In this document: in pieces, positions 9,037 through 29,513 of the stretch
Numbering within the stretch: position 1 is the first letter of the stretch
How the letters are laid out: every line of letters begins with the position of its first letter
Sequence record: MW650886.1
Direction: 5' to 3' (one strand)
DNA length: 64,000 bases
Source: Escherichia phage vB_EcoM-ZQ1
Program-made: the position numbers and the translations under genes
Notes under the pieces: generated by a model
Seen by the model: the letters and a program-made list of their open reading frames with translations, nothing else
Databases searched by the model: none
Told to the model about the DNA's origin: nothing

Positions 9037-11382
9037 TCAATCCTTCTTGATAACTTCAGTCAGGCCGTTTCGCAGGCCGTAGCGAATGTTGTGTTGGAAG
9101 TATTCCTGGAACTCCTGTTCGCGCTGGCTAATAACAAACAGGTTGTTCCCGCCGAACTTATGCTTCAACATCTCAACCGATTCCTGCACCCCGCGCTCGC
9201 TCATGTTCTCAAGGATCTCGTCCAGCACGAACAGGTTACATTGTACAGACGCCTTGAGGTTAGCCACATCGCGCAGAGCTAATGTCACAGCCAGGTTCAG
9301 ACGACTGCGCTGGCCAGTAGACAGGGAGAAGATACTCTGTCCTTTGCGGCCTGCTGCGCTCATGGTGATCTCAAAGGTATCGTCAACAACGATGTCCAGG
9401 AACATGTTGAGGGCTTCAAGATACTCGTTGATCTTGCTATTGAGGAATGGCAGATACAGGGCGATGATACGCGCCTTGGTCTGGTCATCTTTCAAGAAGA
9501 ACAGCAGGTGCTGTAAGTCCTGGAGTTCTTGGTCGGCATCCTCGCGGCGCTGGTATAGATCCTCCAGTTCACCTTCCAACGCAGCGATGGAGTTCTCCAG
9601 GTCGGTGGTAGGTGTTGGCTTTACAGCCAGTTTACGCTCCAGATCGGCAATAGACGCCACGAGAGGAGCACGACGGGCTTTCAGCTCGGCGATCTTATCA
9701 TCGACGGCTTTAATCCCGCTAACGGCATTCTCTCGCGTCTGTTGCAGCGACGCAGTGATGTCTTCAAAACGAACGTTCATTGCCTTACGGATGTCAAGGA
9801 TCTTCTGTTGGCATTCACGGTTCAGCGAATTACACTCAATCGTGGCGACATCATGAAAACCTTGAATATCACGGCGCAGCTGCTTGATGTTGTCAACGAT
9901 TTCGTCGGCCTGCTTGCGCATTGCATCAAGTTCAGCATCCAACACAGCAATGTCAGCAACCAGCTTGTCGTCCTGGGCTTTGTGGTCATCGATCAACACA
10001 GTGACTTCGGCGGTGACTTTATCCAGCTGGTCCAGCTTCGCCTGTAGATCCTGAATCCGAGGATTGTACTCGCTTTCAATGCGCGCCTTGGTATCGTCGG
10101 ACACCAGTTGGGTACATGTTGGGCAAGTCCCCATGTCGTGGAAGCGCTTGATGGCCGACTGATGCCCCTCCATTTCAGTCTGGAACTTGATACGGAAGTT
10201 CTCACCCTGCTGGCGGCGCTGAATAGCAGCGTTCAGGGTGTCCAGGTTTGTGTTGCGCTTGGTGAGCAGGGTGTTCTTGCGTTCGGCCACTGTAAAGGCG
10301 CGGTCACGCAAGACCTGAAGTTCATGCTCCGCAGTAGACACTTCGATGCGCTCATAATCATCGGCCTTTTCCTGAGCGGCATCCTTCACCGCCTGGATCT
10401 TGGCATCAAAGTCTTTCTTGACAGCCTCGATCTCTACCATGGATTCATCATGCAGGCGGCTTTCCACCGTCTTCATTTCCTGGGTGGCTTCAAACTCCAC
10501 AGCCGTGAGGCGGGTGCGCTCCTCATTCTGCGCGGCAATGTCAGCATCCAGGGAATTCAGGGCTTCCTGTTGCTGTACAAGGATATCGGCCGACTGCTGT
10601 TGGATCAGGGCGTTGGATTGCTCGATCTGCTGAAGCTGCGTCTTCTTGTTGGTGTGGTCAACAACCTTCAGTGCGCATTCGTTAGATATAGAGTCCAGAG
10701 TTGCATTTGTCCTTTTGATGGCGGCCTTGACATCTTCGTTCATCAGGCTGAAGAAGCCCAAGTCCCAGATAGTCTCCACCATGGCGCGGCGGTCGGCTGT
10801 GTACATCTCCGTGAACGGAATGAACTTCTCTTTACCCAACACCAGAGAGTTCTCAAACATCTTCTGGTCTACACCGATGAGGTTCACGATGTACTTGTTC
10901 ATGTCGGCTTTGGCTGCTTCGTTATCGATCTGCAACCACTTGCCGTCCACCATCTGGTAGACTTCAACAAAGTCAGGTTTAATGCCACGGCGAACCTTCC
11001 ATTCGCTACCACGGCAGGCAAACTCCACCTCACCCACACATTCCTTGCGGCTCTGTGAGTTAACCAGGCCTGCCTTCTTCTCCTTCTTGCTGTATGTGTC
11101 GTTGTACAGTACGAAAAACAGCAGCCATACCAGCATCGTGGATTTACCCGCGCCGTTGTCATCAGACGTGACAAGGGTGGCCGGGTTGCGCTGATAATCA
11201 ATCTCCATGAACTGATTGCCGATGGAGCGGAAGTTCTTGGCGCGGCCTTTGCGGAAGGTCAGTTTGTGTGTAACAACGTTACGCACTTCAAATGGGACTT
11301 CAACCTCGACCGGGGCGTCGGCTTCCTTCAAAAGATTACCAAATTTGGTCAAGATATCTGTGCTCTGAGTCATGTTATGCAT
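9037..11382 (-). CDS. 46: recombination endonuclease ATPase subunit, gp46 / SbcC-Rad50-like
   Basis: Walker A GAGKST at N-terminus, coiled-coil middle, LSTGQRSR signature and D-E Walker B at C-terminus. Confidence 0.8.
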   Translation of the reverse strand: MHNMTQSTDILTKFGNLLKEADAPVEVEVPFEVRNVVTHKLTFRKGRAKNFRSIGNQFMEIDYQRNPATLVTSDDNGAGKSTMLVWLLFFVLYNDTYSKKEKKAGLVNSQSRKECVGEVEFACRGSEWKVRRGIKPDFVEVYQMVDGKWLQIDNEAAKADMNKYIVNLIGVDQKMFENSLVLGKEKFIPFTEMYTADRRAMVETIWDLGFFSLMNEDVKAAIKRTNATLDSISNECALKVVDHTNKKTQLQQIEQSNALIQQQSADILVQQQEALNSLDADIAAQNEERTRLTAVEFEATQEMKTVESRLHDESMVEIEAVKKDFDAKIQAVKDAAQEKADDYERIEVSTAEHELQVLRDRAFTVAERKNTLLTKRNTNLDTLNAAIQRRQQGENFRIKFQTEMEGHQSAIKRFHDMGTCPTCTQLVSDDTKARIESEYNPRIQDLQAKLDQLDKVTAEVTVLIDDHKAQDDKLVADIAVLDAELDAMRKQADEIVDNIKQLRRDIQGFHDVATIECNSLNRECQQKILDIRKAMNVRFEDITASLQQTRENAVSGIKAVDDKIAELKARRAPLVASIADLERKLAVKPTPTTDLENSIAALEGELEDLYQRREDADQELQDLQHLLFFLKDDQTKARIIALYLPFLNSKINEYLEALNMFLDIVVDDTFEITMSAAGRKGQSIFSLSTGQRSRLNLAVTLALRDVANLKASVQCNLFVLDEILENMSERGVQESVEMLKHKFGGNNLFVISQREQEFQEYFQHNIRYGLRNGLTEVIKKD

Positions 11383-20907: not shown

Positions 20908-21278
20908 AACGTACCCCCGACAGAGATCAAGAACTCTTCTTGCATGGTCTTGACCGGGTGGTGGTTGCGGGTTTCGAACATGAAGCCCCAGCCACCGTCG
21001 GCGACGTTACCAAAGGTCTTGACACCAAAGGACTTCGTCCCGTTGGAGCAGGAATAGATGTCCAGGACGTATGGGCTACCCTGATTGTCGATCCCACGAT
21101 TCACGTCGTCTGATACACAGCGCTCAATCATCTTCCCGTTCTTATACAGAACGAGGTCTTGACCATACGCCTTGAAAGCATAAACACCGTTGGTAGACAC
21201 TCCGGTGATGACAGGAGGGGCGGAAACAGCAGCAAAGGAAGCGCCTAGCAGGGCAACAGCGAGGATTAACTTTTTCAT
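20904..21278 (-). CDS. secreted protein (124 aa)
   Basis: conserved leader ...GACTATATC-ATG; signal peptide MKKLILAVALLGASFAAVSA. Confidence 0.5.
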   Translation of the reverse strand: MKKLILAVALLGASFAAVSAPPVITGVSTNGVYAFKAYGQDLVLYKNGKMIERCVSDDVNRGIDNQGSPYVLDIYSCSNGTKSFGVKTFGNVADGGWGFMFETRNHHPVKTMQEEFLISVGGTL

Positions 21279-21302
21279 GATATAGTCTCTTGGTTTCAAA
21301 TG

Positions 21303-21324
21303 GGCGGGGTATGATTACCCCGCC
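21303..21324 (-). terminator. stem-loop terminator (repeat copy)
   Basis: ggcggggta-tgat-taccccgcc hairpin; near-identical copy at 21863. Confidence 0.45.
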
Positions 21325-21330
21325 GTGGGT

Positions 21331-21837
21331 TTATAGGGTAACAAGTGATACGGTAAAAACCATCGTCCCGTCTGTTGCCATTTTTCTTGAAACTGGTATG
21401 ACGCGAGGCTGGCAGAATATCCATTCTTTCTCCATGGACGCCAAGTCCAGCATATCCATTTCTGATTCATCGCCTTTGTTCACAAATTTTTCTAGAGAAC
21501 CATAGACATTAAGCCCCTCCGGGAGTCTGTTTCGATGTTTGTAACAAATGCGGGCAACAGCTTTGGTTCCGTACGATTTAGAAAATTTTTTGGCCACATG
21601 CTTCAGTTCACTGAAGCTAAGACAAGAATCCCATGTCTGGAACATGTCGCCTCGTTCAAACATCATCTCTAAACGCGCAACGTCCTCTTTAGGCAGCCCG
21701 CGATAAAGTGTGGTCGTCTGTGGTTCGCGCAATTCTTGCACCAGATCACGGACGGCAGGGGAAACAGTACCGGGGCGCATGATGTGGGACTTATCATGGA
21801 CGAGGTAAAATAAATCTTGAATTTGTTGATCAGTCAT
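21331..21837 (-). CDS. hypothetical protein (168 aa)
   Basis: conserved leader ...GGAACTATATC-ATG. Confidence 0.5.
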   Translation of the reverse strand: MTDQQIQDLFYLVHDKSHIMRPGTVSPAVRDLVQELREPQTTTLYRGLPKEDVARLEMMFERGDMFQTWDSCLSFSELKHVAKKFSKSYGTKAVARICYKHRNRLPEGLNVYGSLEKFVNKGDESEMDMLDLASMEKEWIFCQPRVIPVSRKMATDGTMVFTVSLVTL

Positions 21838-21862
21838 GATATAGTTCCTGCATTTCAAATAG

Positions 21863-21884
21863 ACGGGGTAATCATACCCCGCCC
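21863..21884 (-). terminator. stem-loop terminator (repeat copy)
   Basis: cggggta-atca-taccccg hairpin. Confidence 0.45.
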
Positions 21885-22136: not shown

Positions 22137-22187
22137 GATATAATCTTACCTTTCAACCCGGTGAACCCATCGTTCGCCAGTTATTGA

Positions 22188-22216
22188 ATAATAGGACATT
22201 CCTTAGAGGAAGTAAA
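22188..22216 (-). promoter_or_regulatory. T4-type early promoter (-35 GTTTAC, -10 TATTAT)
   Basis: GGTTTACTT - 17 bp - TATTAT. Confidence 0.5.
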
Positions 22217-22228
22217 CCCCTAAAAGTA

Positions 22229-22254
22229 AAAATCCCCAACGTTTGTTGGGGATT
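22229..22254 (-). terminator. stem-loop terminator (42-bp repeat copy 1)
   Basis: aaatccccaac-gttt-gttggggattt hairpin. Confidence 0.5.
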
Positions 22255-22269
22255 TAATAAAAGTTATGC

Positions 22270-22494: not shown

Positions 22495-22543
22495 AATATA
22501 TACCTTCTTTCAATGAACGGGAACGCCCCGCTCTATGAATTCA

Positions 22544-22572
22544 ATAATACGCATTTACATTATAGAAGTAAA
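22544..22572 (-). promoter_or_regulatory. T4-type early promoter (-35 GTTTAC, -10 TATTAT)
   Basis: GGTTTACTT - 17 bp - TATTAT. Confidence 0.5.
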
Positions 22573-22584
22573 CCCCTAAAAGTA

Positions 22585-22610
22585 AAAATCCCCAACGTTT
22601 GTTGGGGACT
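22585..22610 (-). terminator. stem-loop terminator (42-bp repeat copy 2)
   Basis: ccccaac-gttt-gttgggg hairpin. Confidence 0.5.
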
Positions 22611-22614
22611 TCTG

Positions 22615-22938
22615 TTATTTGCGCAGGGCAACCACGAGTTCAGCGAGTTCACCCATGGTCGGGTCATCGCCTTTACTACCCAGCCAACCGTCGTCGATTT
22701 CGACCTGAAACTCTTCTTCTAGTTCCATTACGATTTCGATGGCATCCAGTTCGTCACCACCGAGGTCTTTCTTGGTACGGAGGCCAGCCAGCTTGTCCAG
22801 GGCGTCCTCGTTCTGAGATGCCACGTCGTCCAGCAATTTGCGCTTGTCATCGTCACGCCACAGATCCATATTCAGATTGTCAGTGGCGTACTGAGCCAGA
22901 TGACGCATGACTTCAACATATGTTGGTTTACTGCTCAT
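22615..22938 (-). CDS. acyl carrier protein homolog with Ser to Glu at the phosphopantetheine site
   Basis: DLGGDELDAIEIVMELEEEFQVEIDD aligns to E. coli ACP [27 protein letters not shown]; DSL replaced by DEL. Confidence 0.6.
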   Translation of the reverse strand: MSSKPTYVEVMRHLAQYATDNLNMDLWRDDDKRKLLDDVASQNEDALDKLAGLRTKKDLGGDELDAIEIVMELEEEFQVEIDDGWLGSKGDDPTMGELAELVVALRK

Positions 22939-22979
22939 GTTATTACTCCAAAGAAAGGCGGGTTGCCCCGCCCGTTGGA

Positions 22980-28292: not shown

Positions 28293-29513
28293 TTATTCAG
28301 GTTTCTTCAAACGGTCCAGCAAATTGACGGAACCACGTTTGAGCACGACTTCATCACAGCGCTTTTTGTATTCCCCACCGCCGTCATATCCAACCTTCCC
28401 GCGCGGTTTTTTACCTTGCTGTATGGCCTCTACACAACGAGTATATTTCGACAATTCACAAAAGTGGTTTTCTAATTGTTGAACATTCATACACTGATCC
28501 CAAGGCTCTTCCGCAGACCAAAATTCTTCCCTGTTATACCCAAGAGGGCCATAAACCGCGTCCTGATTGTCCCGCAACCAGAAGATGCATTCTTCATGCG
28601 TCATGCCATCTTTGTCCTGGAACATCAGGTCGATCCCTGCGCGACAGCCTGGTCCAGCAACCGTGAAGTGGTTCTCACTGAAAGGATATTCAGGAATGTA
28701 AGTGAAGTCAACCCATATCTGATAGGCCAGGAATGGGCCAAGCCCTTCGATGTCGTCATACATGCGCTGGTATACTTCCAAAGGAGTACCAAGGCGCAGC
28801 AGGTCATGGAAATAATTTGGATACTTGTTGACGAATGCCTTCAGGGAGCGGATGACACGCATTGGCATGTACGGTTCCCAACCTTCGATGGTGTAGAAGT
28901 CCGGCTCTGCTTCGGCTATCGCCTTGGCTTCTTTATAATCCATGTTCTGGGTTGAACCGTCTTTACAGATCAGATTCACCATCATCCCACCGAAGCGCTG
29001 CTCCTTGTGGTTGACAACCATCTCAGGGAAAGCCAGGCATTGCTTCAGGCCGCCCGTGTTGAAGGCATTGGTGAATACCTTACCACCGTCGGCCTCGAAC
29101 TTCTGAAGTCGTTCGCGGGTTGCATCGAGGTTGATCTCGGCGAATTCTTTGATCGTCATCGCGCCGCCGATAGCCTGGATTGGATCCCAGAGGTTGAACA
29201 TGCGGAACAACACGCAGTTGAACATCTTGTCGGCCATACCCAGAGCATCATTCTTGGCGATGTTGTTGATCAGGTTGAGAGACTGCCTGTCGTGCTCTCT
29301 CCGGACGTTACAGAATTTAACCTGGCGTAGTATGGGATTATCAGTCCAAGGAGCAGGAAGGCGCTGGACGTCCTTCTTGACGTGGATCTGATAACGATCG
29401 CGCATCCATTCGTAAGACAGGCGGGTATGGGTCGGGCTGAGAACCGGTTTGGCCGACTTTATCTTTTCTTCACGGACACCGCAGTACGGGACGTCCAGGG
29501 CTTTATCTTTCAT
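28293..29513 (-). CDS. hypothetical protein (406 aa)
   Basis: long ORF; family not recognised by eye. Confidence 0.55.
   Translation of the reverse strand: MKDKALDVPYCGVREEKIKSAKPVLSPTHTRLSYEWMRDRYQIHVKKDVQRLPAPWTDNPILRQVKFCNVRREHDRQSLNLINNIAKNDALGMADKMFNCVLFRMFNLWDPIQAIGGAMTIKEFAEINLDATRERLQKFEADGGKVFTNAFNTGGLKQCLAFPEMVVNHKEQRFGGMMVNLICKDGSTQNMDYKEAKAIAEAEPDFYTIEGWEPYMPMRVIRSLKAFVNKYPNYFHDLLRLGTPLEVYQRMYDDIEGLGPFLAYQIWVDFTYIPEYPFSENHFTVAGPGCRAGIDLMFQDKDGMTHEECIFWLRDNQDAVYGPLGYNREEFWSAEEPWDQCMNVQQLENHFCELSKYTRCVEAIQQGKKPRGKVGYDGGGEYKKRCDEVVLKRGSVNLLDRLKKPE

Follow-up and report, generated by a model that had tools for sequence, protein, structure and literature searches.

The locus and its surroundings

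The window analysed is a stretch of 64,000 nucleotides from Escherichia phage vB_EcoM-ZQ1 (sequence record MW650886.1). Sequence identity over the region is 95-97% with Escherichia phages A221, RPN242 and PC3/PH4 and with Enterobacter phage fGh-Ecl02; PC3 is classified in the Ackermannviridae, Aglimvirinae, and the vB_EcoM-ZQ1 stretch belongs to a phage of the same group. The gene of interest encodes a small acidic protein related to acyl carrier protein (ACP), here called the ACP-like protein. Its neighbours are the genes for a 733-aa protein with a vWA domain and for a 56-aa protein, together with a series of small genes without assigned function (Table 1). The true start of the vWA gene is a Met 28 codons into the longest open reading frame, since phrog_2426 matches residues 29-761 of that frame and the orthologs agree.

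Table 1. Features of the ACP-like gene and its immediate surroundings, in positions of the 64,000-nt window
Feature	Position	Strand	Remarks
vWA-domain protein gene, 733 aa	22980..25181	-	Pfam VWA, 33.4 bits; phrog_2426; intact MIDAS D-I-S-G-S
Terminator-like hairpin between the vWA and ACP-like genes	22956..22973	-	from a scan; 7 pairs, 6 of them GC, then TTCTTT
Shine-Dalgarno GGAG	22946..22949	-	7 nt 5' of the ACP-like ATG; read from the sequence
ACP-like gene	22615..22938	-	ATG start; 107 aa, pI 4.3, net charge about -14
Residues 29-53, helical insertion in loop I	22780..22854	-	from the alignment; helices 30-40 and 44-51 in the model; fastest-evolving part
Residues 62-83, DELD motif, helix II and start of helix III	22690..22755	-	correspond to E. 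coli ACP 35-56; most conserved segment
Codon 63, GAA (Glu)	22750..22752	-	equivalent of Ser36, the phosphopantetheine-attachment position of ACP
Residues 89-95, KGDDPTM	22654..22674	-	short insertion preceding helix IV; includes the invariant DDPT motif
Downstream cassette	22539..22611	-	hairpin 22589-22608, then sigma70-like promoter TTTACT-16-TATAAT (22586-22559) for the next small gene
Second copy of the cassette	22183..22255		73 nt; terminator and sigma70-like promoter; the two copies are 84% identical

Only 41 nt separate the vWA gene from the ACP-like gene, and this gap holds the first of the two terminator-like hairpins that flank the latter (22973-22956 and 22608-22589). In phage Maynard a ribosome-binding site and a terminator have been annotated at positions that match the GGAG and the hairpin of the gap, respectively. 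No sigma70-like promoter was found between the ACP-like gene and the vWA gene upstream of it. The sequence-only reading from which this analysis started had placed the ACP-like gene in a region of early-promoter cassettes; this holds for the surroundings, with two 73-nt cassettes just downstream, but not for the gene itself, which has no such promoter and adjoins the cassettes without lying inside one. A second family of direct repeats consists of a 50-nt unit at 21275-21324 and 21834-21883, which holds a GC-rich inverted repeat (GGCGGGGT...ACCCCGCC) and, as far as can be read from the letters, seems to overlap the starts of adjacent minus-strand genes. Taken together, the two repeat families point to modular units of early transcription serving the small genes that lie downstream of the ACP-like gene. 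A transcriptome of Ackermannviridae was sought in the literature and none was found.

A 406-aa protein (28293-29513, minus strand) encoded some 5 kb upstream of the ACP-like gene matches Pfam HMUDK_hel, the 5-hmdU DNA kinase, with 270 bits and marks the thymidine-hypermodification pathway typical of ViI-like phages; clamp-loader genes are found further upstream of the locus. On the other side, a 175-aa open reading frame (21331-21858, minus strand) matches phrog_832, 'RNA polymerase ADP-ribosylase', at E = 1.3e-15 over profile positions 1265-1425 of 1480, the C-terminal part, and may be a stand-alone Alt-like ADP-ribosyltransferase domain. A 781-aa protein (9037-11382, minus strand) gives 41.3 bits with SMC_N, the RecF/RecN/SMC N-terminal domain, and from its position among replication and repair genes may be a Rad50/gp46-like subunit of a recombination nuclease. 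No tRNA genes were found in the 64-kb window.

Homology to ACP and the phosphopantetheine-attachment site

That the protein is a homolog of ACP, as first suggested by the sequence-only reading, is borne out by several searches. Pfam PF00550 (PP-binding) scores 26.0 bits over residues 58-101 (E = 1.1e-5; gathering cut-off 20.8); phrog_4154, 'acyl carrier protein', aligns residues 1-107 to its profile positions 1-108 (E = 2.4e-57); and the matches of phmmer against all PDB sequences were ACPs only, with B. subtilis ACP best and above E. coli ACP. The segment DLGGDELDAIEIVMELEEEF aligns gap-free to B. subtilis ACP in the latter search, and BLASTP against E. coli AcpP gave 17 identities in 27 positions, again gap-free, with phage residues 57-83 opposite E. 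coli residues 30-56, so that phage residue p is residue p-27 of mature E. coli AcpP. Because both alignments run without gaps, Glu63 is the equivalent of Ser36, and the earlier claim that the attachment serine of the DSL motif has become glutamate stands. A true serine elsewhere in register, which would refute that claim, is excluded: residues 42-87 contain no Ser, the Ser residues closest to this stretch (S41 and S88) lack conservation, and no conserved Ser was found anywhere in the family. With the attachment Ser replaced in register the canonical carrier function is lost, and a protein of this sequence cannot be a canonical carrier.

The resemblance in helix II is to ACPs in general and not to enterobacterial AcpP specifically. 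All NCBIfam AcpP equivalog models score far under their cut-offs for the ACP-like protein; for TIGR00517/PRK00982 the best score is 34.6 bits against a cut-off of 70.45, with only residues 54-83 aligned. PF14573 (PP-binding_2), the family of the apicomplexan mitochondrial ACPs that lack phosphopantetheine and one built on the Toxoplasma protein, gives 25.2 bits, below its gathering score of 32. Compared directly with E. coli AcpP, the phage protein is similarly acidic and has nearly the same helix II, sharing D35, L37, D38, E41, M44, E47-E49, F50, I54 and D56 in E. coli numbering. It differs in carrying Glu or Asp for Ser36, in the 25-residue insertion in loop I and in the DDPT insertion before helix IV.

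The two also differ in genetic setting. The phage gene lies outside any fab operon, and neither the fab or pls genes nor the cognate phosphopantetheinyl transferase expected beside an AcpP were found at the locus; no match to an acyl-handling enzyme was obtained among the neighbours of the gene. A tblastn search with E. coli AcpS, using an approximate query sequence, returned no Ackermannviridae record at E <= 0.01.

Architecture of the protein

The extra length of the protein is not an N-terminal extension. Residues 6-21 align with helix I of ACP, and the additional residues, approximately 29-53, form an insertion in loop I that is missing from cellular ACPs and from the short phage relatives described below. 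A further insertion, of four residues and containing DDPT, precedes helix IV; D91, D92, P93 and T94 are invariant in the family. The structure model is of moderate confidence (pLDDT 75) and shows the four-helix ACP fold. The equivalent of E. coli F28 is T, V or C in the family, and this change together with the loop-I insertion means that client recognition could differ from that of AcpP.

Conservation and selection

Position 63 is occupied by Glu in 31 and by Asp in two of the 33 cluster representatives (56-97% identity), and by Ser in none. The 103-aa form of Kuttervirus has Asp, the forms from Aglimvirinae and from Dickeya, Klebsiella and Serratia phages Glu. Deep relatives recovered by the exhaustive profile search at 34-50% identity (P0042-P0049, P0062 and phage CRW-SP2) likewise have Glu or Asp. 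At the codon level, 23 related genes use GAA (15), GAT (7) or GAC (1) at position 63, and the flanking codons vary synonymously (GAC or GAT for Asp; CTG, CTC, CTT or TTG for Leu). Acceptance of phosphopantetheine at the canonical site was lost before the family diversified.

Residues 54-84 have 42% invariant positions and a mean entropy of 0.55, as against 4% and 1.58 for the loop-I insertion, whose regional dN is 0.45-0.96. For the whole gene, Nei-Gojobori dN/dS is 0.05-0.33, calculated for unsaturated pairs only. At the equivalents of E. coli D35, L37, D38, V40, E41, M44, L46, E47, E48, E49, I54 and D56 conservation is complete or at least 90%, which upholds the retention of an acidic helix II asserted at the outset. 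In structural work on ACPs these are the positions at which AcpP docks on its partner enzymes. Purifying selection acts on the whole gene and is strongest on the docking helix and on the acidic residue at the former attachment site.

A carboxylate has been kept at position 63, and not just any residue other than Ser, which suggests a role for the side chain as such. Most obviously, it might stand in for the phosphodiester of holo-ACP or serve as a ligand for a metal or a basic residue. The sequence-only reading had proposed an apo-ACP mimic; a retained carboxylate would be no less compatible with a holo-like role that mimics phosphate, or with the binding of a metal or basic residue, than with simple apo mimicry.

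Distribution and annotation

By tblastn the ACP-like protein is present in 270 phage records, each with at least 80% coverage, from phages of Salmonella, Klebsiella, Escherichia, Dickeya, Shigella, Enterobacter, Serratia and Yersinia; the locus search with alignment A1 recovered only 17 loci, from Ackermannviridae. The gene is labelled either 'acyl carrier protein' or 'hypothetical protein' in the records, and tables in genome papers give it by name only, as 'acyl carrier protein', and pass over the motif (PMC3220722; PMC10892097). Neither the 2024 review of the Ackermannviridae nor the paper on phages with hypermodified bases mentions the gene, and a mention of the missing serine was not found in the searchable literature on these phages. 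'Acyl carrier protein', as the gene is called in many of the 270 records, is a misleading label, and 'ACP-like protein lacking the phosphopantetheine attachment serine' would be a better one; a conserved gene of the whole phage family has been mislabelled for more than ten years. Proteins of ACP fold without phosphopantetheine are a known kind elsewhere; what is new is one conserved across a large family of enterobacterial phages.

Serine-less relatives in other phages

The exhaustive profile search gave 784 proteins at E <= 0.001, only 11 of them at E <= 1e-10. The nearest group from outside the Ackermannviridae (P0053, P0055 and P0057; 86-98 aa) has the DEL motif and the DDPT insertion and lacks the loop-I insertion. 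Short DEL proteins of this kind, a sister group, are encoded on metagenomic phage contigs (L003, 6001-6297; L004; L036, 1825-2085), where they are surrounded by small phage genes and have Thy1, HNH and replication-initiation genes close by. A conserved partner was looked for beside them and rejected: L003 and L036 have different neighbours, none of which matches a Pfam family. Vibrio phage 277E43-1 (OX241464.1) encodes a 177-aa protein (L011, 2980-3513) with an N-terminal PP-binding domain of 31.5 bits in which Asn takes the place of Ser (DNL; LGFDNLDFVELLMALEEEF); its C-terminal region shows a second, very weak ACP-like match. Both the short DEL and the Vibrio DNL proteins are encoded among small phage genes without biosynthetic partners. 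Since DEL and DNL proteins occur in other phage lineages, the serine has been lost recurrently among phage ACP homologs.

The DDPT insertion itself is common to the short DEL proteins and to DSL proteins (P0058, P0061 and P0064), and some of the nearest Ser-bearing relatives that have a DDPT-like insertion are carried by phages as well. In Xanthomonas phage phiXF1 a DSL ACP is encoded between gyrB and gyrA; this phage and the phage-like contigs L033 and L035 keep the motif and, unlike the Ackermannviridae form, may encode real carriers. The loop-I insertion of the Ackermannviridae form was seen in no other phage-borne ACP homolog compared. About 30 of the best 148 profile matches carry D[ED]L, among them P0125 (WP_165956069.1, Streptomyces hainanensis), a bacterial protein named 'acyl carrier protein', a count biased by the Glu in the query profile; several others among these 148 have F, G, P or T at the attachment motif. 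Serine-less ACP homologs may be commoner than annotation suggests, with the same bias of the query profile bearing on the count.

Known ACPs that act without carrying

ACP is among the most highly connected proteins of bacteria, serving the synthesis of fatty acids, phospholipids, lipid A, biotin and lipoate and binding SpoT, MukB and IscS. A precedent for a phage protein directed at this network is the toxicity of apo-ACP, which strongly inhibits the sn-glycerol-3-phosphate acyltransferase PlsB and stops the growth of E. coli (PMC3896788). There, an ACP unable to carry an acyl group is a competitive poison of a client, which is the mechanism proposed below for the phage protein. The difference is that apo-ACP toxicity is an overexpression artefact of a host protein with a free Ser, whereas the phage protein has a carboxylate in its place as well as two insertions. 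SpoT, on the other hand, does not bind apo-ACP (PMC3896788).

The mitochondrial ACP of Plasmodium is described by Falekun et al. (2021, PMC8547962) as having no phosphopantetheine group and yet as essential, through its binding to Isd11-Nfs1. Like the phage protein it has the ACP fold, has lost the modified Ser and has been retained under selection, and it acts by protein binding; it differs in being eukaryotic and organellar and in having a known partner, and its likeness to the phage family is one of analogy, with no evident common descent. The residue that replaces the Ser in the Plasmodium protein is reportedly Phe, and so not acidic. ACP-like subunits of mitochondrial complexes likewise show the ACP fold reused as a structural module. 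Examples without a carrier role are Tetrahymena complex IV (7w5z_AC) and Trypanosoma mt-SAF32 (6sga_Fc), which differ from the phage protein in belonging to unrelated lineages and in being permanent parts of large complexes. A 2026 preprint has computationally predicted that a phage ACP, not further specified, binds host FabZ.

A possible surrogate of host ACP

The reading we favour is that the ACP-like protein is a surrogate of ACP that cannot be acylated and acts on a client of host ACP, and to this reading we assign a probability of roughly 0.4. The protein has lost carrier function for good through the Glu or Asp at the former Ser, and would probably act purely by protein-protein binding. 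It retains helix II and the start of helix III, by which ACPs dock onto the basic patches of their clients, and carboxylate 63 may take the place of the holo-ACP phosphodiester at the mouth of the client's active site. By occupying the ACP-docking site of at least one host client the protein would block or redirect that client during infection; candidates are PlsB, the Fab and Lpx enzymes, AcpS and AcpH, SpoT, MukB and IscS. We infer that an ACP client is bound, that this client would be a host protein and that the effect would be inhibitory. The decoy idea is plausible by analogy with apo-ACP and PlsB and with the Plasmodium protein.

Homology to ACP and the predicted fold, the loss of the Ser, the conservation of Glu or Asp and of helix II, the purifying selection on the gene, the want of carrier partners, the recurrence of serine-less ACP-like proteins in other phages and the precedents all support a surrogate aimed at a host client. 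Counting against it are the match to ACPs in general instead of AcpP and the AcpP models scoring far below cut-off, the loop-I insertion and the change at the F28 equivalent, the failure of SpoT to bind apo-ACP, the fact that one Ackermannviridae-like phage (TSW001, below) does without the gene, the position of the gene behind a terminator without a promoter of its own and the pLDDT of only 75 for the model.

The vWA protein as a possible alternative partner

The alternative that survives best, though we think it less likely, is that the ACP-like protein is an adaptor or subunit of a phage complex, most obviously with the vWA protein, the ACP fold serving as a structural module and Glu or Asp63 completing the coordination of the MIDAS metal. 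Acidic ligand residues complete metal coordination in just this way at the MIDAS of integrin I domains, and a strict carboxylate at position 63 would suit a metal ligand. The vWA protein could offer such a site, since the D-x-S-G-S of its MIDAS is intact and D24, S26 and S28 are conserved across the vWA family. At every Ackermannviridae-type locus examined, including those whose ACP-like protein has only about 34-39% identity, the vWA gene is followed directly on its own strand by the ACP-like gene. A virion preparation of phage Sajous1 is reported to have yielded a single peptide from each of the two proteins (PMC10892097).

Gene order is, however, conserved throughout the Ackermannviridae, so adjacency alone says little, and a terminator stands between the two genes. 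The vWA family is also far wider, with 503 phage records against 270 for the ACP-like protein, and extends beyond the Ackermannviridae to Straboviridae (KP15-like and Karam-like), Pseudomonas phage pf16, Bacillus phage AR9 and Rhizobium phages. In Klebsiella phage KP15, pf16 and AR9 an hmmsearch of six-frame open reading frames found no ACP-like gene near the vWA gene. In Aeromonas phage TSW001 the vWA protein is 66.6% identical and the 114-aa gene downstream of it is unrelated to the ACP-like gene, so that the co-occurrence expected of partners fails in all four of these phages. The partnership is weakened by this occurrence of vWA without an ACP-like protein in Aeromonas, Klebsiella, Pseudomonas and Bacillus phages, and the short DEL relatives are found in contexts without any vWA gene. 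We considered synteny as evidence of a partnership and rejected it, given the vWA genes without an ACP-like gene in Straboviridae, pf16, AR9, Rhizobium phages and TSW001; the adjacency is best explained by conserved gene order. As the target we prefer a client of host ACP to a phage partner, of which the vWA protein would be one.

The vWA protein was examined in its own right. Its AF2 model has a pLDDT of 86, and Foldseek finds at the N-terminus a vWA domain and a beta-sandwich like those of ArnB, of 4fx5 and of the Sec23/24 trunk; no informative match was obtained for the C-terminal 450 or so residues, and none of the fold matches links the protein to ACP. Some records call it a 'minor tail protein'. 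The unrelated 114-aa protein in the ACP-like slot of TSW001 (PV714136.1, an Ackermannviridae-like phage; L015, 4838-5179) is a natural 'replacement' and as such could be informative.

Other alternatives

It is improbable that the protein is an Ocr- or Arn-like mimic of nucleic acid or another polyanion, titrating a DNA-binding host defence or nucleoid protein, with its ACP ancestry incidental. Such proteins would be small, helical and strongly acidic, as this one is (pI 4.3), the gene lies within a region of accessory and host-takeover genes, and the 5-hmdU DNA kinase means that the DNA is probably hypermodified and so exposed to modification-dependent nucleases. The net charge of about -14 is nonetheless no greater than that of an ordinary ACP (-15 for E. 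coli AcpP), and conservation is focused on the docking helix, including the hydrophobic L64, I67, M71 and I81, and not on a general pattern of charge; PADLOC models gave no match to the protein, and the fold searches gave no likeness to known DNA mimics.

Least probable is a true carrier modified at a non-canonical residue or by non-canonical chemistry, or else a functionless, decaying relic: most database records do say 'acyl carrier protein' and T94 of the DDPT motif is invariant, but T94 aligns with the Thr before helix IV of E. coli ACP, and Ser-bearing relatives have it too, the family conserves no Ser, neither a phosphopantetheinyl transferase (with the approximate AcpS query) nor acyl-handling enzymes were found, and a relic is contradicted by the dN/dS values and by retention in 270 genomes across genera. 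The remaining probability falls to explanations outside those considered here.

Significance for the Ackermannviridae

Extended to the group as a whole, the surrogate reading would be that the Ackermannviridae, and independently some other phage lineages, have evolved mimics of host ACP that cannot be acylated, with a phosphate-mimicking carboxylate and with docking through helix II that shuts down or rewires a host client. This wider proposal is tentative and we hold it with some doubt. Possible targets include the enzymes of lipid and LPS synthesis, the stringent-response sensor SpoT, MukBEF and IscS.

If it is true, these proteins would form a novel class of factors for host takeover, with the interaction hub of ACP as their target. 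With the docking helix of ACP but no capacity to carry an acyl chain, a phage protein of this kind would lend itself to probing that hub and might inhibit it. Knowing the target would reveal which of the processes that depend on ACP has to be controlled by a large virulent phage, and could point to a protein-based block of a pathway essential to Salmonella, E. coli, Klebsiella and Dickeya.
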